Positions 3,717-58,672 of a stretch of DNA of 64,000 bases are shown here, piece after piece (positions within the stretch are counted from its first letter, which is position 1; each line of letters begins with the position of its first letter). The notes beneath the pieces are model-generated. The model did not search any database, was not told where the DNA came from, and was given only the letters and a program-made list of their open reading frames with translations. The position numbers and the translations under genes were made by a program. This DNA is from Mobula hypostoma. Its lineage: Eukaryota. The stretch lies in contig NC_086108.1 of NCBI RefSeq assembly GCF_963921235.1, positions 10,788,001-10,852,000 of the forward strand, written 5' to 3'.

Positions 3717-4838
3717 TCAACACCTTGACAGACAGTCATCACAGTTTCTGTTCCTTTTATATGTGTTATTAATAATCCCTTAGACCAGGCTCCAACTCAG
3801 CAAACTTCATAGTGGCCAAAAACACTGATGAATTGCGATCAATGTAACCTCTCATTTGGTTTTGTCCCGGACCACAATAACAAGGGTCGTCCCATTCCGC
3901 CTCAGTTTTCTCTCGCAAGGGCTTAGTAGGAGGGGGAGGGGTAGTGACCGCAGAGTTATTGCAAAACTTCCCACAGTACCCCACCATCTCCAAGAGCCTT
4001 CTGAGGGCCCTCTTGTCTGTCGGGGTTGGGAGGTCAGCGATAGCCTGCACTGTAGCTTGCATCACTGCCAGCTGCCCCTGTGTCACCACAATTCCCAGGT
4101 AAGTGACCTTCGCGTGGCCGAACTCATTTTTTTCAAGGTTCACTATCAAGCTGGCTTCAGACAGCCGTATTAAATTGCCAATACACACCTCTGGGTTCAT
4201 CAGCCCTTTAGTCACTGAATTACTCATTATATATGAATGTTGTTTACTAGGCTGACCTATTGTAACAGACACCACCCAACGTCCCAGTTTTTTGCATCGC
4301 CTCGGGACAATCAAACACACGGGTGCGAGTCGTTTAATTACTTCTCCTAAAGAGCCGCTTTGTTCGGGGATTAAGGGAGAGACCTTATCAGTAGACCTGG
4401 CCAAAACAATAGCCTTCTCCCATCTGATCGGTCCCATACTAATCTTTTCAAAATGGTTTTTTTCTCTTATCGGGGGCCCCTAGCTTCATTGATTTCCACG
4501 CTAACACCGACTAGATTTGTTAGCATATCAAAAGCCTGTGACTGTCTCAGTTCGCGTCGGTTATGATCAATAACATCCTTCACCTTGGGCAGCCGGTAAA
4601 TCTCTTTCATGATTCCACCAACTGTTTCCTCCAGCACCGCAAAATGTCCACCGGGGGGTACCTCGTGGGCCATGTTAAAAACCTCATCCCCATAACTGTT
4701 TTGCACCACCCCCCATTCCTCATCTGCGGGTACGGTACTTGGTCTCCCTTTCTTCCTTAGCACTTCCTCCTCCGCACAATAGCCTACTAGTTCCCTTATC
4801 AAGTTTGCATCAGAGAGAGCTGTCTCTGCCGAAACCAT
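3717..4838 (-). pseudogene. Deleted pol remnants: integrase Zn-binding, partial RT, RNase H C-terminus
   Basis: AHEVPPGGHF (integrase His pair); NLEKNEFGHAKVTYLG...LPTPTDKRALRRLLEMVGY (RT thumb); HIKGTETVMTDCLSRC* at ~3717-3765 (RNase H end). No YxDD or DDE core is visible. Confidence 0.8.
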
Positions 4839-4994
4839 CAGCCCCTCGTCTCACTCCCGCGTCTGCACAAATTCTTTCCTGGCTACTGCTACGTCTGTCC
4901 CAGCTCTCTCACTACCTCTTGTCTCACTACACTCCTCCTTTTCATTTTCTACCCCCTTCTTGTACAAGGTTGGCAGATTCAGCTAAAGCAAGGT

Positions 4995-6737
4995 TTAGCA
5001 AGGTTCAGCTAAATTTACCACTGCAGCTAAATTCAGTACCGCAGCCCCATGATGAACCTGTGAGTCCATGGGCAGGGCCTCACCGCTGGCAGGCTGACCT
5101 GTCAATCTCACGATTGGGAACACGATTCCCCCGGCGACGTCATTACCGAGCAAGACTTCCACGCCTTTCATCGGTAATTCGGACCTCACCCCGATTGTGA
5201 CTAGTCCAGAGACCAGGTTGCTTTGTAAGTGTATCTGGTGCAAAGGGACTAACTCTGTCCCTTCCCCAACACCTTTGACCTTTACCTCCCCAGTCTGGGT
5301 CTCCGAGCTAAACTCTAATACACTCTTCAGTATTAGTGACTGACACGCTCCCGTGTCTCTCCAGATCCGCACTGGAACTGGTTTTAACCCCTCCTTCACT
5401 GACACCAATCCGGCCGAGATAAACCTCTCGCGCCCTTCCTGAACTTTGGCAGACCTGTCCTTCCCTAGCGGTTCGCTTAACAGCTCAATACAGTCATTCA
5501 AAATCGTTGTCTTCCCTTTTCCCGTCTCCTTCTTTGGGGCAAAGCACCTGGACGCAAAGTGTCCGACTTTCCGGCAATTATAGCAGACGATCCAAGGAGA
5601 CTTCCTGCCAGACTGCTCCCGGTCTACCTTATCCTTTTCACTAGTCCCCGGCTTACTTTCTGACTTTTCCGGCGGACTCTCCCGGCCGTCCTGACTACCC
5701 TTCTGGTAGTCTTTACTCGGGGCAAACTTCATTTTATGCGTCAACGCATACTCATCCGCTAACTTAGCAGTTGCGACTAACATGGCTGCCTCTTTCTCAT
5801 CGAGGTAGGGCCTCATACCCTCAGGGACACAACCTTTAAACTGCTCAATCAGGATCAGCTGTAGCAGTCTGTCATAATCACCCTCTATCCCCTTCGAGGC
5901 GCACCAACGCTCACAATATGTCTGCATCTCACGGGCAAACTCCAAATACGTGTGGTCCCACTGCTTCCTCGCATTCCGGAACCTCTGCCGGTATGCCTCT
6001 AGGACCAACTCATAAATCCTGGGGATGGCCTCTTTCACCACCTCATACCTCTGGGCATCTTCTGCGGACAAAGCCGAGTAAGCTCCTTGGGCTTTCCCTT
6101 TCAGTACACTTTGAAGCAAAACAACCCACTTATCCCTCGGCCAGTCCTGACTTATAGCCACTTTTTCGAAGTGGAGAAAGTACCGATCCACGTCGGTATC
6201 GTCAAATGGGGGAACCAGCCTAACCTCCTGGGTCGCCCGAAACCCTCCACCTTGGTTCGGCATGAGCCCCTGTTCGGCCCTTAACTTTAACTTCTCCAGC
6301 TCAAATTCCCTTTCCCTCTGCCTCTCTTTCTCTTCTCACTCCCATTGCCTCTCTTTCTCTTCTCTCTCCAACTGTCTCTCCCTCTCTCTCTCTTGCCTTT
6401 CTAACTCTTTCTCTTTCTCCCGCCTTTCTAACTCTCTCCCTTTCTCTTCCCGCTCCAACTGCCGTACCCGGAACTCGTGCTCGAGTCTCAGTTTTTCGAG
6501 CTGCACCTGTACCGCATCTCCAGCAGGTTTTTCAATAGACACCACCCCCAGCTCGCCTTGGGGAAACACACCTTTAGATACATAGTGCTCTACGATAGCT
6601 CTGTGTATCTCCTCTCTCCTCATTGTTGACTTCCCCTTAGCAAGATTCAACCGTTTGGCCACAGCTACCAATTCCGATTTCCTGGCATCCTCTAATGCCT
6701 CCAAGGTCGGCGCCGTTATAAATTCCTCAGCCTCCAT
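4995..6737 (-). pseudogene. Retrotransposon gag-protease ORF with one in-frame TGA (6336-6338)
   Basis: ORFs 6336-6737 and 4995-6263 are in the same frame. Features: E/R-rich coiled coil, capsid/SCAN-like segment (LIEQFKGCVPEGMRPYLDEK...AKLADEY), CCHC knuckle (CYNCRKVGHFASRC), aspartic protease (RDTGA...LLGND). Confidence 0.9.
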
Positions 6738-11930: not shown

Positions 11931-12306
11931 ATGTATGTTCATTGTCCGTTCAAATGTTCTGACTTGCTGCTGTTGAGTCCTGATGAAGGGTCTCGCCCCA
12001 AAGCATCGACTATCTATTAATTTCCATAGATGCTGCCTGACCTACTGAGTTCCTCCAGCACTCTGTGTGTATTGTTGCTATACCTTAGGGTCCTATGTGG
12101 GAGAAGGCAGGAGAATGTGGTTGAGAAGGTTAATAACTCAGCCATGATGGAATAGCAGAACAGAGTTAATGGGCTGAATGGCCTAATTCTGCTCCTATGC
12201 CTTATGGACTGTCTAAAATTTAAACTGGTTTAAGCGAAGTCCCCATTAACAACACTCCATTTTTCAAGAGATGAATTTGACTAACTGAAGGCTTTCTGTC
12301 TTTCAG

Positions 12307-13207
12307 AATGATTCCATCCACCAGTAAAACCTTCTTAGTGAATGACCTGTCTCCAGGGCGCGACTATGACCTGTGCATCCTGGCCGTCTACGACGACTGG
12401 AGCACGCTGATGACAGCGACCAGAGTGGTGGGCTGCGTGCAGTTTACTACGGAGCAGGAGTACTCCCGCTGCCACTCCATGCACACGCAGTTCCTTGGTG
12501 GGACAATGATCATCATCATCGGCGGCATCATCGTGGCCTCCGTCTTGGTCTTCATCATCATCCTGATGATCCGCTACAAGGTGTACAGCAACGCAGGTGA
12601 GGGCAAGACGCCGGTCAGCAACGTCTGCTCTCAGACCAATGGCAGTCAGCAGGGAGGCATGACGCGGTCCAGCTCCAAGCTAGCCGAGGGGTCAGGTGAG
12701 TGCACGCAGGAGATTTTCGGTGACTGCCCCAAAGGCTCGGTGACTGTGCTATTAAACCTGTCGGGGGAACAGTGCGGCAGCCCTCCGAGCAGCAGCGGAA
12801 TGACAATGGACTCTCTATCTCACACACAGAGGAGGACAAAGCCGAGCCCAGACCTCCAGAAAGAGGCACAGTTGTCTTCTGAAGAGAGAGCGACCGAAGG
12901 AAGCACCACTGACTCCAGCATGTCAGTCTGTCTGATCAGGGCGAGCAAGGGTAACCTGCCCCGGAGAGAGAGGCAGATTAAGCTTGGTAACGTTCCCGTT
13001 CTGCCCTGCGAGTTCCCAAGGTCCCAGCATAGACACTCCTTTGATGGAGACTATTCTCTGTTCCAGAGTCACAGTTACCCAAGGCGGGCGCGGACTAAAG
13101 CAAGCCTGACCGGCAGCGGGCAGAATTTGAACTCTGATGAGTTTGCTCTGGAGAGCAAGAGAACGACATACGGCAGCACAGAGTGGATGCTGGAGAGCAC
13201 AGTGTGA
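12307..13207 (+). CDS. LRFN1: Last coding exon of LRFN1 (SALM2)-like synaptic adhesion molecule: FN3 end, TM helix, cytoplasmic tail with PDZ-binding motif
   Basis: Acceptor tctttcag|A at 12306/12307 (phase 2, completing the conserved R-MIP); [20 protein letters not shown]...[56 protein letters not shown] and [10 protein letters not shown] match LRFN1 as I recall it. The ATG at 12308 is internal, not a start codon. Confidence 0.93.
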
Positions 13208-14842: not shown

Positions 14843-16489
14843 CTACAATAAATTTGGAAAGTATGAATTAAATCTACAAATGAATTACGTATACATCAAC
14901 AAGATAAAGTGCATGAATTAAATATTGTAGGTTTCAGTACAAATTATCTGGTGACACTTCGAATGCGATGTGGCAGGGAGTTCAGAAGCCTAGAGGCCTG
15001 AGGGAAGAAATTGTTTTCCAGCCTGACCGTTCTTGTCTTTATGCATCAGAGTCTCCTGGTGAACACTTCACATGACAAAGGGAGGGATATCATTGAACAG
15101 GAAAAACTGCAGGGAAGATTTCAAAGTTCAAAAGTTCAAAGTAAATTTTATTATCAATGTACATATATGTCACTATATACAACCCTGAGATTCATTTTCC
15201 TGTGGGAATACTCAATAGATCTGTAGAATAATTACCATGACAGAATCAAGGAAAGACTGCCCAACTTGGATGTTCACCCAGAGTGCAGAAGACAGCAAAC
15301 TAAGAAATAAGCAAACTAAGCTAACCTTGGAGAAAGTTCAAAGGAGGTTCACGAAAATGATTCTGGAATTGAAATGCTTATCATGTGAGCAGCATTTGAC
15401 AGCTCTTGGCCTGTACTCACTGGAAATCAGAAGAATGAGAGTGTTCTCATTGAAACCTATTGAAAGTTGAAAGGCTTGGCTAGAGTGGATGTGGAGAGGA
15501 TGTTACCAGTGGTGGGGAGTTTAGCACCAGACGACACGGCCTCAGAATAGAGGGGTGTCCTTTTAGAATCAATACAAGGAGGATTTTCTTTATAGCCCGA
15601 GAGTGGTGAATCTGAGGAATTCCTTGTCAAAGGTGGCCGTGGAGGCCAATTCATTGGGTATATTTAAAGCAGTAGTTGATAGATTCTAGGTCAATCAGGG
15701 CATGAGGGGATACAGGGAGAAGGCAGGAAATTGAGGCTGACAGGGAAAATGGATCAGCCATGATGAAATAGCAGGACAGGCATGATGGGCCAAATGGACT
15801 AATTCTGCTCCTATATTTTAAGGTCTCATGGTCCAACTGTGCAAATACAAAAAGAAAGAAATGATATAAATAAATAAATAGGCAACATGTAATGAAAACA
15901 TAAGATGAAGTGAATCCATAGGTTGTGGGAACACTTCAATGATGGGGCAAGAGAAGCTGAGTGAAGTTATCCTTTGGTTTGAGAGCTTGATGGGTGAGGA
16001 ATAGTAACTGTTCCTGAACCTGGTGGTGTGAGTCCTGAGACTCCTGTGCCTTCTACCTGATGGCAGCAGTGAGAAGAGAGCATGACCTGGTTGGGGGTCC
16101 CTGATGATGGCTGCTGCTTTCCTGCGACAGCGTTTCATGTAGATGTGCTCAGTGGCTGGGAGAGGTTTACCAGGATGCTACCAGGATCAGGGGGGTTGGG
16201 TTACAGGGAGAGATCGACTAGGCTGAGCTTCCACAGATGTATAGAGTCATGAAAGACACAAATAGGATGAAGGCACACAGCCTTTATTCCAGGGAAAGGA
16301 AAGAAAAAAACAAAAAAAAACTAGAGGGCACAGGTTAAAGGTGAGAGATGAAAGATTTAACAGGGACCTGAGGGGAACCCTCTTCAGGTTCATTGATGTA
16401 ATGAGCTACCAGAGAAAGGGGCTGAGGCAGGTGAATTAACAACATTGGAAAGACGTTTGGACAGGTACATGGATAGGAACAGTTCAGAG

Positions 16490-22405: not shown

Positions 22406-23619
22406 TGTCTGTAGATGTGATACCACAATTATTTCTGTCTGATGCTGCTGTTGGGGGGATCTAGCTTCAGATGGGAAATTTGACAAGAAGCCTTTTTAAT
22501 CAGCGCCAGTGTCACTCAGCAAGACCAAGGAACTGATAGTAGACTTCAGGAGATGGAAACCAAAGGTCCATGAGCCAGTCGTCATCGCAGGATCAGAGAC
22601 GGAGAGGGTCATCAATTTTAAATTCATGAGTGTTACTATTTCAGAAGACCTGTCCTAGACCCAACACATAAGTAAAACTTTGACAAGCTTCTACAGATAT
22701 GTAGTGGAGAGTGTATTGATTAGCCGCATCTCAGGCTTATATGGAAACACTAATGCCTTCAAATGGAAAATCCTGCAAAAGGTAGTGGATCGGATTCAGT
22801 ACATCACGGGTAAAGCCATCCCAACCATTGAGCACATAGGAAAGCAGCATCCATCATTAGAGATCCCCACCACCCAAGCTATGCTCTTTTCTCAATGCTG
22901 CCATCAGGTAGAAGGTACAAAAGCTTCAAGATTTGCACCACTAAGTTCAAGAACAGTTACCCACTTGAACAAAAGGGGTAACCACACTCACTTGCCCCAT
23001 CATTGAAAAGTTAAATGATCTCATTAAAAGTTAAAAGTTAAAAGCCAATGATCTCACTTTAAGGACTCTTTATCTTACTCTCTCATGTTCTTGTTATTTA
23101 TTGCTATTTATTTATATTTGCAGTTGCACAGTTTGTTGTCTTCTGCACTCTGGTTGATCTTTCATTGATCCTGTTATAGTTACTGTTCAATGAATTTACT
23201 GAGTATGTCCACAGGAAAATAGATCGCAGGGTTGTATATGGTGACATACATGCACTTTGATAATCAAATTTACTTTGAACTTTCAACTTTGACCTTTTAC
23301 CTGATGTTTTGCAAGAAATGTCCTTTGAAATATCTAGGTGGGAGATGAATTTCTGACCCATCGAAGTCTACGGACAGAGTGTTGGTAGATGGGTACTTGA
23401 TGGTCATCATGGACCCAGGAGTTTATGTTCTCATCAACAGTATCTCAGAGCCACTGCCACCATGTATGAGATTCAGATTCAGGTATTTATCACAGGTACA
23501 TTTGTGTCAACAACAGCATGTGCTGGGGGACAGTCTGTAGGTGTTGACATACATTCTGGTACCACCATAGCTTGCTTACACTGCTTGACAGAGAGCACAA
23601 CAACAGCACGAGGAAGTCT

Positions 23620-24365: not shown

Positions 24366-25662
24366 GTGATGGGGGGAGGGAGGTAAAACTAGCCCCATTC
24401 CTCTCTCTCTATGTACATACACAGTCCCCTAATCCCAAGATAGCCCACCTCCAGTGGACTCGAGGATTCACAGACCTTGGGCCTTTAACTTCTCCAGTGT
24501 GACTGTGGAGATTCGCAGACTCAGGGCTCAACTTCTTCGGACTTTAATCTTTGGTATCTCTGTTGATGGCCATTGAGAACCCTGAATGAGGAACTGAACT
24601 CCAGGCCACAAGCTCTGAACTGAGTGTTTTCTGCTGGTCACCAGAGAATGAATAAATGGTAGATGTCTCTTCCCTCGAGATGATCTCAGGAGACATGTGA
24701 AAGATAGAAAAATGGAGTGTCATGTAGGAGGAAAGGATTAGACGGATCTCAGAGCTTAAATGGACAGCACATCATGGGCTGAAGGGCTTGTACTTTGATG
24801 TACTTTGTTCTATGCTCACTGGCCTCTTTATTAGGTACATCTGCTCGTTAAGACTATAAGACCATAGGATATAGAAGCAGAATTAGGCTATTTGACCCAT
24901 CGAGTCTGCTCCACCATTTCATCATGCTGATCCATTTTCCTCTCAGCCCCAATCTCCTGCCTTCTCCCCATATCCCTTCATACCCTGACCAATCAAGAAT
25001 CTATTAACACCTGTCTTAAATATACCCAATGTCTTAACCTCCACAGCTGCCTGGGGCAACAAATTCCACAGATTCACCACTCCTTGGCTAAAGAAATTTT
25101 TCTTCATCTCCGTTTCAAATGGACATCTCTCTATTCTGAGTCTGCATCTTCTAGTCTTAGACTCCCCCACTATAGGAAGCATCCACTCTATCATGGCCTT
25201 TCACCATTCGATGGGTTTCGATGAGATCACCACTCATTCTTCTGAATTCCAGTGAGTAGAGGTCCAAAGCCATCAAATGCTCTTCTTATGACAAGCCTTT
25301 CAATCCTGGAATCATTTTCATGAATGACCCTGTCCCTCTCTCCTTAATTTCCTGCTCTGCAACTTCTCTCACACATGTCTGAGCTCACCGGTTAACCACA
25401 CTAGGATACTAGGTAGTAATAAAGAATCCTGTTGCGAGGAATGCTAACGAGAGACTTACACACAAGCCAGATGATTGTACACTGAATGCATCCTTGGCGG
25501 GAAGTTCTGTCTCTGAGACCAGATATTACCTCCGCCTGCGGAGACTCCTTGTCCATGGTCTAGTTGCCTGCGTTGCTCCTGGAGGTTGTTAATTAGCCTC
25601 CAGCTGCTTACAGTGCTGCCCAGCAGTGACCTGCATTTGTAAAGCACCATGGTATCACCAAT

Positions 25663-25860
25663 CACAACATGTTGGAGGAACTTAGCAGATCAGGCAGTGC
25701 CCATGGAAAGGAAGAACAATTTGATGTTTCGGACCGAGACGCTTCATCCTCAGCCTGAAACATTGCCTGTTTATTCCGCTCCATAAATGCTGCCTGACCT
25801 GCTGAGTTCCTTCTGCATCTTTGTGTATGTTACAGTAGATTTCCAGCATCTGCAGAATCA
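25663..25860. mobile_element. Palindromic pair of Penelope-like 3' ends
   Basis: GGAACTTAGCAGATCAGGCAG...TGTTTCGGACCGAG is mirrored by CTCAGCCTGAAACA...CTGCCTGACCTGCTGAGTTCC. Confidence 0.75.
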
Positions 25861-25942
25861 CTTGGATTTATGGCATCATCAGTAAAAATTTTACACGAAG
25901 CCACATGGCTGGACAGTGTGGTCTTGAGACAGGTTTCACAGA

Positions 25943-26234: not shown

Positions 26235-27570
26235 GTACCGGATGCAGCAATTCAGATCGACGGGTTTACTATACACCATCAGGATAGATCTAGAGAGCCT
26301 CTTGAAAGCAGAGGTGGAGGAGTATGCCCCATGATCAACTCTTCTTGGTGCACAAATATATCAGTGCTGTCCCAGTTCTGCTCACCAGACCTGGAGTATC
26401 TAGCAGCTAAGCACCATCCTTTTTACCTACCACAAGAGATTTCCGGGATCATTTTGGTATACACATTCCACCTCAGGCCAATGTCAATCAGGCTTTAGAT
26501 GATCTGAGCAATGGGATCAACATGCACGACCCACCCTAACACCTTCACCATCGTTTTGGGAGATTTTAACCAGGCCAGTGTGAAAAACTCACTAAGCAAC
26601 TACCATCAACAGATCACTTGCAATACCAGAGGAAACAACACACTGGACCTTTGCTACACCGCCATCAAGAATGCCTACCGTGCTATTCCACACCCTCACT
26701 TCGGCAAGTCTGATCACCTGGCTGTACTTCTACTCCCTGAGTTAAGGCAGAGACTGAAGACTGTAGCACCAGTAGTGAGGACCAAGAAGGTTTGGACAAG
26801 AGAAGCACAGGAGTACTTACAGGACTGCTTTGAATCTGTAGACTGGACTGTATTCAGGGATTCGTCTTCGAACCTGGGTGAGTATGCTGCAGTTGTTACC
26901 AACTTCCATTAAAACCTGTGTGGATGAGTGTGTACCTACAAAGACTTACTGTACATTCCCAAACCAAAAGCCATGGATGAACCAGGAGGTACGTCGTCTA
27001 CTGAAGGCTAGATCTGTGGCATTCAAGTCTGGCGACCCAGGCCTATACCAGAAAACCAGGTATGATTTGCAGAGGGCTATTTCAAGGGTGAAGAAAGAAT
27101 TTTGAATGAGGTTGGAGGCGATATCGGGTGCACGGCAACTCTGGCAGGGTTTGCAAGACATTACTTCCAACAAAGCGAAACCCAATAGCAAGAATGGCAG
27201 TGATGCTTCACTACCAGATGAACTCAATGCCTTCTATGCCCACTTTGAAAGGAAGATCACAACTACAGCTGTGAAGATCCCTGCTGAACCTGATGACCCT
27301 GTGATCTCTGTCTCAGAGGCCAATATTAGCCTGTCTTTAAAGAGGGTGAACCCTCGCAAGGTGGAAGGTTCCGATGGAGTACCTGGTAAGGCTATGAAAA
27401 CCTATGCCTACCAACTGGCGGGAGTATTCAAGGACATCTTCAACCTCTCACTGCTATGGGTGGAAGTTCCCACTTGCTTCAAAAAGGCAAAAATTATACC
27501 AGTGCCTAAGAAGAATAATGTGAGCTGCCTTAATGACTATCGCCCGTAGCACTCACATCTATAGTGATGA
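26235..27570 (+). mobile_element. Rex1/Babar-type LINE ORF2 (AP endonuclease to start of RT), left part
   Basis: SRGGGVC..IN..WC; VLGDFNQ; TRGNNTLDLCYT; FGKSDH; FPNQKPWMN; CFKKAKIIPVPKK...LNDYRP; contains stops and frameshifts. Confidence 0.88.
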
Positions 27571-29482
27571 CATCGACCTCGACACTGTTTTATCACCCCT
27601 TGTTCAATCCCTTCCAACCTATGTTCGTGACACTTCTCACGCTCTTAAACTTTTCGATGATTTTAAGTTCCCTGGCCCCCACCGCTTTATTTTCACCATG
27701 GATGTCCAGTCCTTATATACTTCCATCCCCCATCAGGAAGGTCTCAAAGCTCTACGCTTCTTTTTGGATTCCAGACCTAATCAGTTCCCCTCTACCACCA
27801 CTCTGCTCCGTCTAGCGGAATTAGTCCTTACTCTTAATAATTTCTCCTTTGGCTCCTCCCATTTCCTCCAAACTAAAGGTGTAGCTATGGGCACCCGTAT
27901 GGGTCCTAGCTATGCCTGCCTTTTTGTTGGGTTTGTGGAACAATCTATGTTCCGTGCCTATTCTGGTATCTGTCTCCCACTTTTCCTTCGCTACATCGAC
28001 GACGCATTGGCGCTGCTTCCTGCACGCATGCAGAACTCGTTGACTTTATTAACTTTGCCTCCAACTTTCACCCTGCCCTCAAGTTTACCTGGTCCATTTC
28101 CGACACCTCCCTCCCCTTTCTAGATCCTTCTGTCTCTGTCTCTGGAGACAGCTTATCCACTGATGTCTACTATAAGCCTACTGACTCTCACAGCTATCTG
28201 GACTATTCCTCTTCTCACCCTGTCTCTTGCAAAAACGCCATCCCCTTCTCGCAATTCCTCGGTCTCTGCCGCATCTGCTCTCAGGATGAGGCTTTTCATT
28301 CTAGGACGAGGGAGATGTCTTCCTTTTTTAAAGAAAGGGGCTTCCCTTCCTCCACTATCAACTCTGCTCTTAAACGCATCTCCCCCATTTCACGTACATC
28401 TGCTCTCACTCCATCCTCCCACCACCCCACTAGGAATAGGGTTCCCCTGGTCCTCACCTACCAACCCACCAGCCTCCGGGTCCAACATATTACTCTCCGT
28501 AACTTCCGCCACCTCCAACGGGATCCCACCACTAAGCACATCTTTCCCTCTCCCCTCCTCTGCATTCCGCAGGAATCGCTCCCTACACAACTCCCTTGTC
28601 CATTCGTCCCCCCCATCCCTCCCCACTGATCTCCCTCCTGGCACTTATCCGTGTAAGCGGAACAAGTGCTACACATGCCCTTACACTTCCTCCCTTACCA
28701 CCATTCAGGGCCCCGAACAGTCCTTCCAGGTGAGGCATAACTTCACCTGTGAGTCGACTGGGGTGATATACTGTGTCCAGTGCTCCCGATGTGGCCTTTT
28801 ATATATTGGTGAGACCCGACGCAGACTGGGAGACCGCTTTGCTGAACATCTACGCTCTGTCCGCCAGAGAAAGCAGGATCTCCCAGTGGCCACACATTTT
28901 AATTCCACATCCCATTCCCATTCTGACATGTCTATCCACGGCCTCCTCTACTGTAAAGATGAAGCCACACTCAGGTTGGAGGAACAACACCTTATATTCC
29001 GTCTGGGTAGCCTCCAACCTGATGGCATGAACATCGACTTCTCTAACTTCCGCTAAGGCCCCACCTCCCCCTCGTACCCCATCTGTTACTCATTTTTATG
29101 CACACATTCTTTCTCTCACTCTCCTTTTTCTCCCTCTGTCCCTCTGAATATACCTCTTGCCCATCCTCTGGGTCACCCCCCCTTGTCTTTCTTCCCGGAC
29201 CTCCTGTCCCATGATCCTCTCGTATCCCCTTTTGCCAATCACCTGTCCAGCTCTTGGCTCCATCCCTCCCCCTCCTGTCTTCTCCTGTCATTTTGGATCT
29301 CCCCCTCCCCCTCCAACTTTCAAATCCCTTACTCACTCTTCCTTCAGTTAGTCCTGACGAAGGGTCTCGGCCTGAAACGTCGACTGCACCTCTTCCTATA
29401 GATGCTGCTTGGCCTGCTGCGTTCACCAGCAACTTTGATGTATGTTGCTTGAATTTCCAGCATCTGCAGAATTCCTGTTGTT
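27571..29482 (+). mobile_element. 5'-truncated Penelope-like element (RT plus GIY-YIG endonuclease plus pLTR) nested in the Rex1-type LINE
   Basis: RT motifs TMDVQSLYTSIP, QTKGVAMGTRMGPSYA, FLRYIDD; Cys-rich linker CKRNKCYTC; VIYCVQCSRCGLLYIGETRRRLGDRFAEH; a few frameshifts; flanked by TA(T/C)AGTGATGA duplication. Confidence 0.93.
29350..29385 (+). ncRNA. Minimal type I hammerhead ribozyme motif (intact core)
   Basis: AGTC-CTGACGA-AGG(GTCTCGG)CCT-GAAA-CG-TC-GACT: helix I AGTC/GACT, CUGANGA and GAAA cores, helix II AGG/CCT, palindromic ACGT in place of helix III. Confidence 0.85.
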
Positions 29483-30140
29483 TACAGTGATGAAATGCTT
29501 TGAGAGGTTGATCATGACTAGACTGAACTCCTGCCTCAGCAAGGACCTGGACCCATTGCAATTTGCCTATTGCCACAATAGGTCAATGGCAGACGTAATC
29601 TCAATGGCTCTCCACATGGCTTTAGACCAGATGGACAACACAGACACCTATGTCAGGATGCTGTTCATTAACTATAGCTCAGCATTTAATCCCATCGTTC
29701 CCACAATCCCGATTGAGAAGTTGCAGAACCTGGGCCTCAAAGTACCCAGGACATCTTTAGGAAGCAGTGTCTCAGAAAGGCAGCATCCATTATTAAAGAT
29801 CTCCTGCACCCAGGACATGCCCTTTTCTTACTGTTACCATCAGGTAGGAGGTACAGAAGCCTGAAGGCACACACTCAGCGATTCAGGAACAGCTTCTTCC
29901 CCTCTGCCATCCGATTCCTAAATAGACATTGAATCCTTGGACACTACCTCACTTTTCTAATACACAGTATTTCTGGTTTTTGCATGTTTTTAAATCTATT
30001 CCGTATATTTATATTATAATTGATTTACCTCCCTATTTATTATTTTTTCTTCCAGATTATGTATTGCTTTGAACTGCTGCTGCTACGTTAACCAATTTCA
30101 CGTCACATGCCAGTGATAATAAATCTGATTCTGATTCTGA
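29483..30140 (+). mobile_element. Rex1/Babar-type LINE, right part with internal deletion and tail
   Basis: TVMKCFERL...[13 protein letters not shown]...[14 protein letters not shown] continues the ORF broken at 27570; tail AATAAATCTGATTCTGATTCTGA. Confidence 0.88.
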
Positions 30141-41134: not shown

Positions 41135-43310
41135 GTCTCATTACCAATTGATGTAGAGAGTACAGAGTGTCATTCCCCATTGGTGTAGAGAGATGCAATA
41201 TATTATTACCCATTGACACAGAGAGATACAGTATCATTCCCCATTGATTCAGAAAGATGCAGAGTATCATTACCCATTGGTGTAGACAGATGCAAAATGT
41301 CGTTACTCATTGATACAGGGAAATGCGGAGTATCGATATTCATTGATACAGAGAGATGCAGAGTGTAATTCCCCATTGATGCAGAGAGATGCAGACAGTC
41401 GTTACCTATTGATGTAGAGAGATATTCGGTGTCGTTATCCATTGATAGAGATGCAGACAGTCGTTACCTATTGATGTAGAGAGATGCAGAGTGTCATTAC
41501 CGATTCATGTAGAGAGATGCAGAGTTTCATTCCCCATTGATTCAGAGAGATGCAGTGTCATTTCTCATTGATGTAGAAAGATGCAGAGAGTAGTTACCCA
41601 TTGATACTGAGAGATGCAGTGTCATTTTCCATTGATATAGAAAGATGCTCAGTGTCGTTGCCCATTGATGCAGACAGTCGTTCCCTATTGATGCAGAGAG
41701 ATGCAGAGTGTCGTTACCCATTGATACTGAGAGATGCAGAGAGTAGTTACCCATTGATACTGAGAGATGCAGAGTGTCATTTCCCATTGATATAGAAAGA
41801 TGCTCAGTGTCGTTGCCCATTGATGCAGACAGTCGTTCCCTATTGATACTGAGAGATGCAGAGTGTCATTTCCCATTGATATAGAAAGATGCTCAGTGTC
41901 GTTACCGATTGATGCAGACAGTCGTTACCCATTGATACAGAGAGTTGCAGAGTGCCGTTACCCATTGATGTAGAGAGATGCAGTGTGTCATTCTCCATTG
42001 ATACAGAGAGTTGCAGAGTGCCGTTACCCATTGATGTAGAGAGATGCAGTGTGTCATTCTCCATTGATACAGAGAGTTGCAGAGTGCCGTTACCCATTGA
42101 TGTAGAGAGATGCAGTGTGTCATTCTCCATTGATACAGAGAGTTGCAGAGTGCCGTTACCCATTGATACTGAGAGATGCAGAGAGTAGTTACCCATTGAT
42201 ACTGAGAGATGCAGAGTGTCATTTCCCATTGATATAGAAAGATGCTCAGTGTCGTTGCCCATTGATGCAGACAGTCGTTCCCTATTGATACTGAGAGATG
42301 CAGAGTGTCATTTCCCATTGATATAGAAAGATGCTCAGTGTCGTTACCGATTGATGCAGACAGTCGTTACCCATTGATACAGAGAGTTGCAGAGTGCCGT
42401 TACCCATTGATGTAGAGAGATGCAGTGTGTCATTCTCCATTGATACAGAGAGTTGCAGAGTGCCGTTACCCATTGATGTAGAGAGATGCAGTGTGTCATT
42501 CTCCATTGATACAGAGAGTTGCAGAGTGCCGTTACCCATTGATGTAGAGAGATGCAGTGTGTCATTCTCCATTGATACAGAGAGTTGCAGAGTGCCGTTA
42601 CCCATTGATGTAGAGAGATGCAGTGTGTCATTCTCCATTGATACAGAGAGTTGCAGAGTGCCGTTACCCATTGATACTGAGAGATGCAGAGAGTAGTTAC
42701 CCATTGATACTGAGAGATGCAGAGTGTCATTTCCCATTGATATAGAAAGATGCTCAGTGTCGTTGCCCATTGATGCAGACAGTCGTTCCCTATTGATACT
42801 GAGAGATGCAGAGTGTCATTTCCCATTGATATAGAAAGATGCTCAGTGTCGTTGCCCATTGATGCAGACAGTCGTTCCCTATTGATACTGAGAGATGCAG
42901 AGTGTCATTTCCCATTGATATAGAAAGATGCTCAGTGTCGTTACCGATTGATGCAGACAGTCGTTACCCATTGATACAGAGAGTTGCAGAGTGCCGTTAC
43001 CCATTGATGTAGAGAGATGCAGTGTGTCATTCTCCATTGATACAGAGAGTTGCAGAGTGCCGTTACCCATTGATGTAGAGAGATGCAGTGTGTCATTCTC
43101 CATTGATACAGAGAGTTGCAGAGTGCCGTTACCCATTGATGTAGAGAGATGCAGTGTGTCATTCTCCATTGATACAGAGAGTTGCAGAGTGCCGTTACCC
43201 ATTGATGTAGAGAGATGCAGTGTGTCATTCTCCATTGATTTAGTGAGGTGCAGAGTACTGTTACACATTGAGGCAGAGAAATGCAGATTTCATTACCAGT
43301 TGATGCAGAG
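41135..43310. repeat. 33-bp minisatellite with 66-bp dimers and higher-order blocks
   Basis: Unit ~CCATTGAT(G/A)(T/C)AGAGAGATGCAGAGTGTCGTTAC; near-identical in the centre and diverged at both edges. Confidence 0.97.
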
Positions 43311-43479
43311 AGTGGTAAGTGATGCAAGTATGTGGCAGCTGGAGAAATGATGTGGGACAGGGAGCTTTGGACTCCAGGGGGATGGGAAAGATCTGGTGAC
43401 GTTGGGCAGAAGAGAGAAGAAAGTGGATTCAGAGGCAGAAGATAGGTCCTCCATTGGTAGGGGTTTGCTATGGATATTA

Positions 43480-43840
43480 CATAGAAACATAGAAACATAA
43501 AAGCCTACAGCACAATACAGGCCCCTGGGCCCACAAAGTTGTGCTGAACATGTCCCTACCTTAGAAATTACTAGGCTTATCCATAGCCCTCTATTTTTCT
43601 AAGCTCCATGTACCTATCCAGGATTCTCTTAAAAGACCCTATCGTATCCGCCTCCACCACCGTTGCCGGCAGCCCATTCCATGCACTCACCACTCTCTGA
43701 GTAAAAAACTTACCCCTGACATCTCCTCTGTACCTACTCCCCAGCACCTTAAACCTGTGTCCTCTTGTGGCAACCATTTTAGCCCTGGGAAAAAGCTTCT
43801 GACTATCCACACGATCAAAGCCTCTCACCATCTTATATTG
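43480..43840 (-). mobile_element. CR1 3' end
   Basis: TRGHRFKV...FFTQRVVSAWNGLP; (TTTCTATG)n tail. Confidence 0.85.
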
Positions 43841-45715: not shown

Positions 45716-46231
45716 ATTCCGGAATCCGCTGTGTTCAGGACTGTTCCTGAAAGGTGTCTCAGATGGGAATGGGAAAGGCAGTGTTAAAACTCCCTCTAAA
45801 CCCCTCAGCTGAGAAGGAGAGGGGTGTGATGGGGTAAAAGAGTAGGAGGGTGGGATGGGGAAGGTAGTAGTTGGTCTACATCCTGCTGTAACCTTGGAAA
45901 ACCTACTTCAATGTCCATTACACCACCAATACTGCACCTCAAGTTCAAACTCAGATTTAATTGTCATTCATCTGTAAACATGTATAACTAAACAAAAAAA
46001 AAGTTCCTCTGGGACCAAGGTGAAAAATACAGTACATATATCACGTGCAACAGACACAAAATGCTTTAGGAACTCAGCAGGTGAGGCAACATCGCTGGAA
46101 GCAAATAGACAGTCCATGTTTCAGTCTGAAACTTCTCTTCAGGACTGGAGAGGAAAGAGGGAATGACAGAATAAAAAGATGGAGGGCACTTACACATACA
46201 GAACACAAAATAATATTAACATAATAATATT

Positions 46232-46702: not shown

Positions 46703-49700
46703 TAACAGATAACAATAGAAAATAATGTTCTTTAGACATAAATTGCATGTACGAAAGCTGACAGGACACTTCTCATGAGGAGTGAAACTTCAGGAGGCAG
46801 AAAGTGTTGGTGGTCTTGGCAGATTGGTGACAGAGCGGTGATAGAATTTTAATGCTGCATGATGTGAGTTGAGGCCTTTGGGGAGGACATTCTGCTCCAT
46901 GAGTGGCAAATGAATTAGGTCCAGGAGAAGGTTACCTAGTCCTTTGACCCTGCTCTGCCATTCAATAGTACCATGGCCTAAACCATTAGACATAGGAGCA
47001 GAATTCGGCCATTTAGCCCATTGTGTCTGCTCCTTCATTCCATCATGGCTGATTTAATATCCATCTCAAACCCCATTCTCCAGCCTTCTCCCTGTAACCT
47101 TTGACACCATGAATAATTAGATTAAATTAGATTAGATTCAACTTTATTGTCATTGTGCTGAGTACAGATACAAAGCCAATGAAATGCAGTTAGCATCTGA
47201 CCAGAAATGCAAAGAATAGTGTTATTTACAAAATAACTGCGAATAAAAAGTGCTACAGCACACAAATATAAAAGTACTGAGACAGTACAATACGGGTGCA
47301 ATACTGCTTAGCACTGTGATGTGAGGTTCAGCAGGGTCACAGCCTCAGGGAAGAAGCTCTTCCTGTGCCTGCTGGTGCGGGAGCGGAGGCTCCTGTAGCG
47401 CCTACCGAATGGGAGGAGAGTAAAAAGTCCATGGTTAGGGTGAGATGCATCGTTGATAATGCTTTTCACCCTGCCCAGGCAGCGTTTATGGTAGATGTTC
47501 TCAATGGTGGGCAATTGGGTGCCGATAATCCACTGGGCAGTTTTCACCACACGCTGGAGTGCTTTGCGGTCCAATACGGGACAACTGCCCTACCACACTG
47601 AGATGCAGTTGGTGAGTATGCTCTCAATGGTACAGCGGTATCCTGGGACAGAGGTGAGCTTTCTTGATGCTCCGCAGGAAATAAAGACGCTGTTGTGCCT
47701 TTTTGATCAGGATGGAGGAGTTCAGAGACCAGGTGAGATCCTCGGAAATGTGGACACCAAAGAATTTGAAGCTTGTTACACACTTCACTACAGCTCCGTT
47801 GATGTAGATGGGTACGTGAGTGTGGCTCCTGGCATGCCTGGACCTATCAGCCTCTGCCTTAAATATACCCAATGACTTGCCCTCCACGGCACCTGTGGCG
47901 ATGAATTCCACAGATTCACCATCCTCTGGATAAAGAAATTCATCCTAATATCTGTTCTAAGGGCATGTCCTTCTATTCCGAGGGTGTGCCCTCTGGTCCT
48001 AGATTATCCCACAAATGGAAACATAAAATCCAAATCCACTCTGTCTGTCAGTGTTTGATAGGTTTTATTTAAAGCCCCACTCATTATTCCATAGTCCAGT
48101 GAATACGAGCCCAGAGGTATCAAATGTTCACACAGTCCCCTGAGTCTGTTCCACCATGCAAGAGGACGATGGCTTACCCAACCCCCAGATCCTGAATCCA
48201 CCTGAAGTGTCTTGGCCTGATACGTCGACTTATTCTTTTCCATAGATTCTGCCTGGCCTGCTGAGTTTCTTCAGCCTTTTGTACGTGTTTCACCAGAGCC
48301 TGTTCTGCTATTCAATAGGACATGGCTCACCCAATGCCCTGAACCTGCTCATAATGTTGTGCTGATCTATTTAAACACCTTACCAAACTCATCTTTCTTA
48401 TGCAATGTGCATATCCCTCCATTCCCTGCATATCCAAGTGTTTATCAAGAGTTTCTTCAACATCTCTATTAGATTTGTGTCCGCAGCCACACCTGGCCGT
48501 ACTTTCCAGACACCCACCACTTTGTGTAAATTATTCCCTTTGAGCTTCCCTCTCTAACCTTAAACGTACGTACTCCGCATGCTGTTAGACATTTTGGCCC
48601 TGGGAAAAGATAGAGGTGGCTGCAGATGTAAAGTGCTTGGGTTTGGTCAGAGAAAGCAGGGAAACCCACCTCTCCCTTGTGAAAGCACATGCCACCAGAC
48701 TGGAGGGCAGCTTCTACCGCATTGAATGGTTCTGTAGAAGGATAAGCTGGACTCTTGACCTTACAATGTGCCCCGTTGTAGCTGTGCACCTTACAGCATG
48801 TCTATCTGCACTGCACTTCTTCTGATGCTGTTACACTTTACTCTACATTCTGTTATTGTTTTACCTTGTTCTACCTCAATGCATTGTGTAATGATCTGAT
48901 CTGTGTGAACAATGTGCTGACAAGCTTTTCACTGTACTGTACCTCAGTAATCATTCACGAAAATGATTCCAGAATTGAAAGGTTTATCATATGATCAGCA
49001 TTTGATGGCTCTGGGTCTCTGCTCACTGGAGTTCTGAAAAATTGAGGAGGAATCTCATTGAAATTTCTAAAATGTTGAAAACTCGACAGAGTGGATGTGG
49101 AGAGGACGTTTCCCATGGTGGGGGCAGTCTAAGCCCAGAGGTCACAGCCTCAGAACAGAGGGGCGTCCATTTAGAAAAGAAATGGATTTTCTTCAGCCAG
49201 AGCATAGAGAATCTGTGGAATTCATTGCCACAGTCATATATAGAGGCCAAGTGATTGGATATGTTTGAGGCAGAGGTTAATAGATTCTTGATTAGTCGGG
49301 GCATGAATGACTGCAGGGAGAAGGCAGGAGATTGGGGCTGAGAGGGAAATGGATCAATCAGTCATGATGAAATGGAAGCAGATACTTGATGGGCCAAATG
49401 GACTACTTCTGCTCCTATATCTTATGTTGTCTTATATTGTCTACATGTGACAATATAAACCAACACCAATACCAATCTGTCAGGATAGACACCACCGTTA
49501 CAGGATAGGAACAAGTAGGATTTAAGATTTTTGTGGAACACCTTTATGGGGTAAGCAGAGATGTTTCCTAGAAGGAAGTCCTGAGTTCATGAATTCTGGG
49601 AATGTGTTCCACTGCTGAAAAGCTTGTCAGGAAGGTGAGTACTGAGCTTTTCCATTGACTGATTCCAAGGGGCATCATTTAGGTGATTGGAATTAAGGAA

Positions 49701-49799
49701 GAAGGTACAGAAGCCTCAGGACTTACACCACCAGGTTCAGGAACAGTTATTACCCCTCAGCCATCAGGCTTTTGTACCAAAGCGGATAACTTCATTCAA

Positions 49800-50174
49800 A
49801 CATGAGGAATTCTGCAGATGCTAGAATTTCAAGCAATACACATAAAAGTTGCTGGTGAACGCAGCAGGCCAGGCAGCATCTCTAGGAAGAGGTACAGTCG
49901 ATGTTTCAGGCCGAGACCCTTCGTCAGGACTAACTGAAAGAAGAGTGAGTAAGGGATTTGAAAGTGGGAGGGCCGGACTGGAACCAATGTCCTAGGGGGA
50001 GCGTTTGCTACTGTTGTTCAGGAGGATTTAAACTAAAAAGCTCCCACTTTCAAATCTCTTACTAGCTCTTCTTTCAGTTAGGCCTGACAAAGGGTCTCGG
50101 CCTGAAACGTTGACTGTACCTCTTCCTAGAGATGCTGCCTGGCCTGCTGCGTTCACCAGCAACTTTGATGTGTG
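49800..50174. mobile_element. Head-to-head Penelope pLTR pair with 68-bp foreign spacer and 13-bp TSD
   Basis: 49800-49972 is the reverse complement of the PLE 3' end and 50041-50174 is the forward copy; TAACTTCATTCAA at 49787-49799 and 50175-50187; the host is a Rex1-type tail (~49695-50430). Confidence 0.9.
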
Positions 50175-50641
50175 TAACTTCATTCAACTTCACTTGCCCC
50201 ATCATTGAGATGATCCCACATCCTATGGGAACATCTCACCTATAGACTCACTTTCAGGGACTCTTCATCTCATGTTCTCAATAATTATTGCTTATTTATT
50301 TCTTATTTCTTCTTTTCGTATTTGCACAGTTTGTTGTCTTTTGCACTCTGGTTGAACGACCTAGTTGGCCGGTCTTTCATTAATCTATTGAGTATGCCCA
50401 CAAGTAAATGAAATTTACTTTGAACTTTGGAGGAAAGTATAAGAGGGATATCAGAAGTAAGTTTTTAACATCCTGCCAGGGGGTTGGTAGAGGCAGAAAC
50501 ATTAGGGACATTTAAGAAACTCATAGGTAGGTACATGGGTGATAATAAACTAGAGGGCTATGTAGGAAGGAAGGGTTAGTAGGTTAAAAGGTTGGCACGA
50601 CATTGTGGGCTGAAGGGCCTGAACTGTGCTGTAGTGTTCTG

Positions 50642-57730: not shown

Positions 57731-58213
57731 TTGGTTTTCACAAGACAGACACCAGCGCCATTATGCCCCAACCAAAAGCACGTCATGGACCAACGCCAGG
57801 AAGTGGATTTTTCCGTTCAGGAATCACCGTTGCCTGAGGCAACGATACTCACTCAGTGCGTCTGCGGCTTAGATTACTCTGTAGAAGTGATTTAGTTCAT
57901 GTTGAGAAGGTGTTTTTACTCAAAATTAATGAATTTGATTAAACTGGTGACATTGAAATATGTGCGGTTAGGGCATTTTTGACATTTTTAAAACACTGCT
58001 ACTGATGTAGACAAAATGAATTTGTCGACACGTGCTAGGCATTTACTGGCATCAGCCAGAAGTTCCCTGCTTTTTCAAAACACGATTAATAATTAATCAT
58101 TGCTTGTAGGAAGCAAAGCGTCCAGTTTGGAACACAAACACCCAAATGCAAACCCAAGCCCACGTCCAGATCCCAAACTATTGTTTGCTGTGAAGAGTAT
58201 TCTGACTCCCCCC

Positions 58214-58672
58214 ACTCAGGTTGGAGGAACAACACCTTATATTCCGTCTGGGTAGCCTTCAACCTGATGGCATGAACATCGACTTCTCTAACTTCCGCTA
58301 ATGCCCCACCTCTCTCTCTGTCCCTCTGAATATACCCCTTGCCCATCCTCTGGGTCCCCCCCCCTTGTCTTTCTTCCCGGACCTTCTGTCCCATGATCCT
58401 CTCGTATCCCCTTTCCCCTTTTGCCTATCACCTGTCCAGCTCTTGGCTCCATCCCTCCCCCTCCTGTCTTCTCCTATCATTTTGGATCTCCCCCTCCCCC
58501 TCCAACTTTCAAATCCCTTACTCACTCTTCCTTCAGTTAGTCCTGACGAAGGGTCTCGGCCTGAAACGTCGACTGCACCTCTTCCTAGAGATGCTGCCTG
58601 GCCTGCTGTGTTCACCAGCAACTTTTATGTGTGCTGCTTGAATTTCCAGCATCTGCAGAATTCCTGTTGTTT
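58214..58672 (+). mobile_element. Young Penelope-like 3' fragment
   Basis: Nearly identical to 28968-29482 apart from an internal deletion. Confidence 0.92.
58539..58574 (+). ncRNA. Minimal type I hammerhead ribozyme motif (intact core)
   Basis: AGTCCTGACGAAGGGTCTCGGCCTGAAACGTCGACT, identical to 29350-29385. Confidence 0.85.

Follow-up and report, generated by a model that had tools for sequence, protein, structure and literature searches.

A 375-bp insert (49800-50174), lying between two identical 13-mers, consists of two 5'-truncated pLTR pieces of a Penelope-like element (PLE) placed head to head with their 3' ends outward, and of a scrap of a CR1 retrotransposon between them. It sits in a 64-kb stretch of vertebrate DNA rich in old retroelements, the whole of which was analysed and is called the window below. 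With moderate confidence, it can be read as the outcome of one integration by an endonuclease-bearing PLE, which would have primed on both strands of a single staggered cut and whose two new DNA ends would have been joined by way of a foreign template. The product is a dead insertion without function of its own and is probably unique in the genome. An earlier note on this DNA had singled it out as a palindromic double-Penelope insertion. The insertion is real, but its layout is not unusual, as an inverted pLTR combined with a target-site duplication (TSD) and a tail is textbook PLE structure. Indeed, a typical PLE is bounded by pLTRs and includes an adjacent inverted pLTR, a TSD of 9-10 bp and an optional 31-bp tail, and head-to-head is the most frequent pLTR arrangement (PMC3846280). 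The locus is composed of the following features.

49696-49786, plus strand: host repeat, the ORF 3' end of an older non-LTR retrotransposon, which makes up the left half of the target.
49787-49799, plus strand: left TSD copy, 77% A+T, the last two bases of which fit the PLE 3' end equally well.
49800-49972, minus strand: left arm, a 5'-truncated pLTR piece of 173 nt with its 3' end leftward.
49800-49836, minus strand: PLE tail of 37-38 nt, in the left arm only.
49900-49927, minus strand: minimal hammerhead remnant of the left arm, with an intact core; CpG decay at 49902 has disrupted its 15.2-16.2 pair.
49970-49972: 3-nt microhomology GGG, common to the left arm and CR1 in a comparison by eye with the catshark row.
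49970-50036, plus strand: CR1 fragment, the last 21 ORF1 codons and the stop, matching ScyCan_CR1-1a.
50037-50040, plus strand: four extra bases, the reverse complement of 50047-50050.
50041-50174, plus strand: right arm, a 5'-truncated, tail-less pLTR piece of 134 nt with its 3' end rightward.
50084-50111, plus strand: minimal hammerhead remnant of the right arm, with core G8 changed to A at 50089 by CpG decay.
50175-50187, plus strand: right TSD copy, the first base of which could equally be PLE.
50188-50428, plus strand: 3' tail of the host repeat, forming the right half of the target, with paralogs at 15969-15835, 23053-23157 and elsewhere.

The two TSD copies are identical at 13 of 13 positions, and a search of both strands finds no third occurrence of the word in the window. 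The probability of such an agreement by chance is 3e-6, 121 boundary pairs being allowed for. A paralog of the host repeat (15925-15990, minus strand) runs uninterrupted through the site and holds the TSD word once, which identifies the TSD as a true duplication and bears out the claim that one perfect 13-bp TSD bounds the insert. This paralogous site is the only empty one seen, the orthologous contigs of all four runs used here ending at or before 49767. These runs (X1, X5, X15 and X16) are four of 23 public ones, and their contigs are the best-supported entries of repeat-rich tables. The left host flank, found at high contig depth in the four runs, is 83% identical to the paralog at 16058-15958. 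Its reading frame stops at the TAA opening the TSD (49787-49789) and resembles the end of an ORF with RVT_1 and ALKBH8_N domains at 37.5-38.5 kb. The host element is presumably of Rex1/L2 type; three DNA words of the host repeat gave no match within the first 400 characters of the entries in a supplement of repeat consensi.

Stop codons are found at both places, the host ORF stop opening the TSD and the CR1 ORF1 stop (50034-50036) ending the spacer. These two coincidences probably reflect AT-rich sites, and they may also stem from an RNA end made at a stop codon. To the left of the insert, a perfect 15-bp inverted repeat (48917-48931 and 49616-49630, 684 nt apart) may be due to chance or represent the ends of an old DNA transposon.

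The arms, whose 3' ends point outward as the earlier note described, are identical at 125 of 134 positions (94%; nine differing columns). The left arm is 94.6% identical to a copy at 58498-58665 and 93.5% identical to a copy at 29309-29476, the latter being the end of an element with RT and GIY-YIG domains, and the right arm is 91-92% identical to the same two copies. Their PLE identity holds, since the same pLTR ends this RT and GIY-YIG element, and sequence comparison provides good support for reading the arms as the insertion of an endonuclease-bearing (EN+) PLE. Four other PLE loci of the window are the following.

27571-29483: 5'-truncated PLE of 1.9 kb with RT, GIY-YIG and an intact hammerhead motif, ending in the same pLTR.
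58210-58672: young 3' piece of a PLE, lacking about 55 internal nt that the 29-kb copy has at 29074-29128.
46047-46186, minus strand: older solo pLTR that shares the register of its 5' end with both arms.
25649-25881: another pair of head-to-head pLTRs, from an older family, with a tail on the right arm only and no spacer.

In the first of these, a frameshifted copy, the RVT_1 (E 3.7e-6) and GIY-YIG (E 5.2e-4) matches are both slightly below the Pfam cut-offs. This copy sits in the RT region of another non-LTR element and is flanked by an 8-bp TSD (27563-27570 and 29486-29493). For the piece at 58210-58672, no TSD of at least 7 bp was found in the ranges scanned, and the second pair has a TSD candidate (25649-25660 and 25870-25881) agreeing at 10 of 12 positions.

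Three of the nine differences between the arms are due to CpG decay (49902, 50089 and 50111). Two are private and non-CpG (49837 and 50082), more than 90% of the contig depth having the other letter in each of the four runs, and one varies among the pLTR copies of the window. The last three (50057, 50064 and 50065), also non-CpG, form the cluster that had been pointed out earlier. The variants are as then quoted, TTTTATG and TTTGATG both recurring in the 58.5-kb and 29.3-kb copies, but the clustering is not significant by itself (P = 0.15). Private change amounts to about 2% per arm and points to an old, dead insertion.

At its 3' end, the right arm lacks the last 37-38 nt of the left arm. The earlier estimate of about 40 nt was thus correct, although this is no oddity but an ordinary one-sided tail, fitting the optional 30-40-bp tail of PLEs (PMC3846280, PMC8557442). 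The start of the tail (49820-49845, minus strand) looks like a splice acceptor, a run rich in pyrimidines that closes with CAG, and an intron end can occur within the pLTR of a PLE.

Each arm was also said to carry a hammerhead motif. Remnants according to the minimal definition (PMC4209133) are present in both, but both are damaged by CpG decay, whereas the motif is intact in the 29-kb and 58-kb copies. In a lizard PLE, G8 is required for cleavage, as tested with G8C (PMC11167929), and by analogy the G8A change of the right arm would block cleavage as well. Rfam gave no match at the gathering score anywhere in the window, hammerheads included, and folding of the four hammerhead regions and the spacer gave z values near 0 (-0.43 to 0.97).

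Both arms are truncated at almost the same point, as had been observed, their 5' ends mapping to reference positions 126 and 128 of the pLTR, only 2 nt apart. As the two pieces nevertheless differ in length (173 and 134 nt), this agreement suggests an end set by the template. Among 17 regions compared for their pLTR 5' ends, three are at the shared register (the two arms and the solo pLTR ending at 46186), seven start 8-110 nt further 3', and seven are longer or partial. The shared end may correspond to the 5' end of an RNA or to a stop at a C-rich tract. Hammerhead cleavage was considered as its cause and rejected because the 5' ends lie about 70 nt upstream of the cut site.

The spacer had been delimited at 49973-50040 (68 bp) and likened to the end of CR1 ORF1. 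A comparison with CR1 consensi confirms the resemblance. By eye, the spacer is identical at 58 of 67 positions to the catshark consensus ScyCan_CR1-1a#LINE/CR1 (Supplementary Table 2 of PMC13343379), two overlapping spacer words being found in one row of that table; an exact 25-mer (49975-49999) is shared, with a chance probability of 5e-10 in that file. The match covers 49970-50036 (67 nt), and the four bases at 50037-50040 lie beyond it. It follows a DGLH-type motif, ends at a stop that recurs, by eye, in several CR1 rows from sharks, rays and alligator, and lies ahead of the ORF2 start, which places it at the end of ORF1; the translation given for its reading frame is also correct. The DGLH-type motif is taken here as a mark of the CR1 esterase ORF1. 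The similarity to CR1 consensi of sharks and rays suggests that the host is a cartilaginous fish.

In the four runs, contigs cover the spacer 1,400-6,800 times as deeply as the unique flank; this depth is not a copy number and is what a multicopy repeat such as CR1 would give. At position 50002, the spacer has C, as does more than 98% of the depth in runs X1 and X5; T makes up 89-96% of the depth in X15 and X16 and is the letter of the catshark consensus. An X1 contig is identical to 49400-49726, and contigs of X5 and X15 differ at 8 of 352 and 29 of 358 letters, respectively. The C shared with X1 and X5 indicates that the donor was a fairly young CR1 of the host's own lineage. No donor is found elsewhere in the 64-kb window, and local templating of the filler was rejected for this reason. 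The 24-aa spacer peptide has no match in Pfam or in the PDB, and a protein search of a 5.8-billion-sequence set yielded 0 of 8 candidates. Two matches in a 1.84-billion protein set were discarded as tandem-repeat proteins unrelated to CR1. Exact DNA patterns were found neither in viral contigs nor in metagenome contigs.

The length of the GGG microhomology is judged on catshark CR1, and the host's own CR1 subfamily may give another one. On the other side, the four extra bases may be a short fold-back, an untemplated addition or partly CR1. A third template, reached by a jump of the reverse transcriptase to CR1 RNA or by repair on CR1 DNA, is, both routes taken together, a moderately likely source of the CR1 piece. 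A pre-existing chimera of CR1 and pLTR predicts the same sequence, and orientation cannot decide between the two, since, the two arms being opposed, any filler is sense to one of them.

Such a chimera would give rise to a 5' transduction: a truncated pLTR already inserted after the CR1 ORF1 stop would be transcribed from the CR1 promoter, and the reverse transcriptase would read about 65 nt of CR1 flank, only two templates being needed. The CR1 piece and the right arm are indeed sense on the same strand, and PLEs of this window do sit inside other LINEs, as the 29-kb copy with its 8-bp TSD does. The CR1 side of the junction is also very AT-rich, like the cut sites of the lizard PLE (PMC11167929). 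However, a transcribed chimeric source is required, and the matching 5' ends of the arms become a coincidence unless their register is a general hot spot, where two of the three regions starting there, among 17, are these very arms. A transduction is rather unlikely, and a third template is moderately favoured as the source of the CR1 piece.

Separate PLE RNAs had been proposed for the two arms. At 50057, 50064 and 50065, the left arm matches both other young copies (two of two) and the right arm differs. In the four runs, the depth of contigs preferring the 5' end of the right arm is 0.8-2.0 times that of the left, and although depth is not a copy number, the right-arm variant therefore looks abundant rather than private. 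On the other hand, three letters common to both arms are absent from both other young copies, which makes the arms close relatives, so that a single RNA could also have served. The same letter mix could come from a single RNA carrying two unequal pLTRs or from subsequent gene conversion, and the differences at 50057, 50064 and 50065 could be private. From these indirect lines of evidence, the use of two different RNA templates appears probable.

The same letters bear on fold-back self-priming of one template, which would first give a perfect palindrome, its centre being later broken and patched with CR1 while mutation or gene conversion made the arms diverge. A self-priming model has been proposed for rotifer PLEs (PMC3846280). 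It accounts for the equal 5' ends and is compatible with differences whose clustering is not significant, and the insert gives a long hairpin when folded as DNA (-164 kcal/mol). However, the arms would have been identical at birth, whereas the left-arm letters match other copies and the right-arm letters appear abundant, and the one-sided tail fits two independent RT starts. The palindrome is therefore quite improbable as a starting point.

In the preferred reading, a single integration by an endonuclease-bearing PLE, a cut that is visible in the TSD and is here ascribed to the GIY-YIG domain would open both strands 13 nt apart at an AT-rich site in an older repeat. Both 3' ends would then prime reverse transcription on pLTR RNA, as the geometry of the arms indicates. 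One arm would start at the outer RT site and include the tail, whereas the other would start at the inner site and lack it, two such sites having been shown in vitro for the lizard PLE. Two RNA molecules from different source copies would probably be involved, and both cDNAs (173 and 134 nt) would halt at the same place, at a template-set end rather than by timing. The right-hand cDNA would gain up to four bases and move to a CR1 template for about 65 nt, through reverse transcriptase jumping or repair synthesis. Finally, the two ends would anneal through GGG/CCC, followed by fill-in.

The priming of both strands of one staggered cut, already proposed in the earlier note, is well supported, as the inverted geometry and the TSD are observed here and the lizard PLE provides an in vitro analogy (PMC11167929). 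Likewise, the retroelement 3' ends and unequal termini agree with the view that the insert was made by reverse transcription and is not a MITE. A more specific version is a tentative possibility. A dimeric PLE RNP would routinely prime both strands on two RNAs, its cDNAs would run off a defined RNA 5' end, located some 45 nt upstream from the hammerhead, and it would then jump to a CR1 transcript at the ORF1 stop, three RNAs being used in all. If this were true, the centres of such pairs would preserve, across the genome, a fossil record of where PLE transcription started and of germline RNA.

It is highly improbable that the 375-bp insert represents a non-autonomous family, resembling MITEs or retrozymes, whose copies move as a whole. 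The terminal inverted arms with their TSD and a spacer that is multicopy in the four runs would suit such a family, but the arms have private decay and unequal ends, CR1 itself explains the spacer depth, and no second copy of the whole unit is found in the 64-kb window. Moreover, among the best-supported contigs listed for X5, a loose end at 49972 continues in PLE and not in the spacer. None of the contigs listed from the four runs spans the insert or any junction, as an assembly artefact joining three repeats would have it, yet such an artefact is barely credible given the exact TSD restoring the host repeat, the arm-specific CpG decay, the one-sided tail and the second pair in the window.

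Each structural element of the locus has a published precedent. Pen2a_Av and Pen2_Av of Adineta vaga (PMC3846280) have head-to-head pLTRs, one TSD, a 30-40-bp tail at one end and a hammerhead in the pLTR. Their TSD measures 8-10 bp as against 13 bp here, and whereas an overlap or a short palindrome is described for them, the present insert has minimal arms with no ORF left and a heterologous piece between the 5' ends. A scheme in PMC8557442 (Fig. 2) also includes an inverted 5'-truncated copy and the 30-40-bp tail, which is often confined to one end. The capture of unrelated sequences between solo pLTRs with TSDs is reported as well (PMC3846280), and such captures resemble this case by their foreign non-coding DNA and flanking TSD. 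The passage concerned gives no orientation, size or donor, whereas here a 67-nt CR1 ORF1 end was captured in a vertebrate.

Poseidon of Anolis carolinensis, the lizard PLE, cuts and extends both strands in vitro at AT-rich sites, two RT start sites bounding the tail; its ribozyme is dispensable and a dimer is predicted (PMC11167929). Two-armed products, different RNAs per strand and third-template bridges are not described in the excerpt of that paper. For L1, excerpts on twin priming, 'twin priming and switching' and templated insertions (bioRxiv 2024.08.27.596794; bioRxiv 2022.05.18.492429; PMC2912911) likewise describe priming from both nicks, joins by microhomology and short non-L1 templates (<250 bp). 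The CR1 junctions, one showing microhomology and the other extra bases, are as in L1 twin-priming junctions. In contrast, L1 twin priming uses one RNA and its two pieces usually have no duplicated 3' end, and the templated pieces at L1 insertions typically come from within 15 bp, whereas the donor is here outside the 64-kb window. With MITEs, the insert shares its short length, its lack of coding sequence, its inverted ends and a TSD, but it differs by its retroelement 3' ends, its unequal termini and the absence from the window of any sign of a multicopy unit or of a DNA-transposon TIR. In the open-licence literature, no vertebrate case of a LINE fragment flanked by head-to-head pLTRs was found, and a term search of bioRxiv 2026.07.22.740005 gave no treatment of inverted pairs.

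The formation of PLE inverted structures is still called undefined (PMC8557442), and both fold-back on one template and priming on two strands have been invoked. Loci with unequal arms and a foreign centre are an informative class in this respect, as these two features exclude a simple fold-back for such inserts. The CR1 scrap is a single hint that foreign sequence may be copied in when two new DNA ends join. One locus settles nothing, and its value is that of a test case for a genome-wide census of how PLEs build inverted repeats.

Elsewhere in the window, a decayed LTR-retrotransposon-like gag/pol with SCAN and zinc-knuckle domains (3769-6335, minus strand) is presumably a Gmr1/gypsy element. 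The region 12281-13207 (plus strand), which has a weak fn3 match and a transmembrane stretch, looks like the final coding exon of a host gene and resembles LRFN/SALM proteins. At 41840-43504, a tandem array of a short repeated unit gives rise to long open frames.
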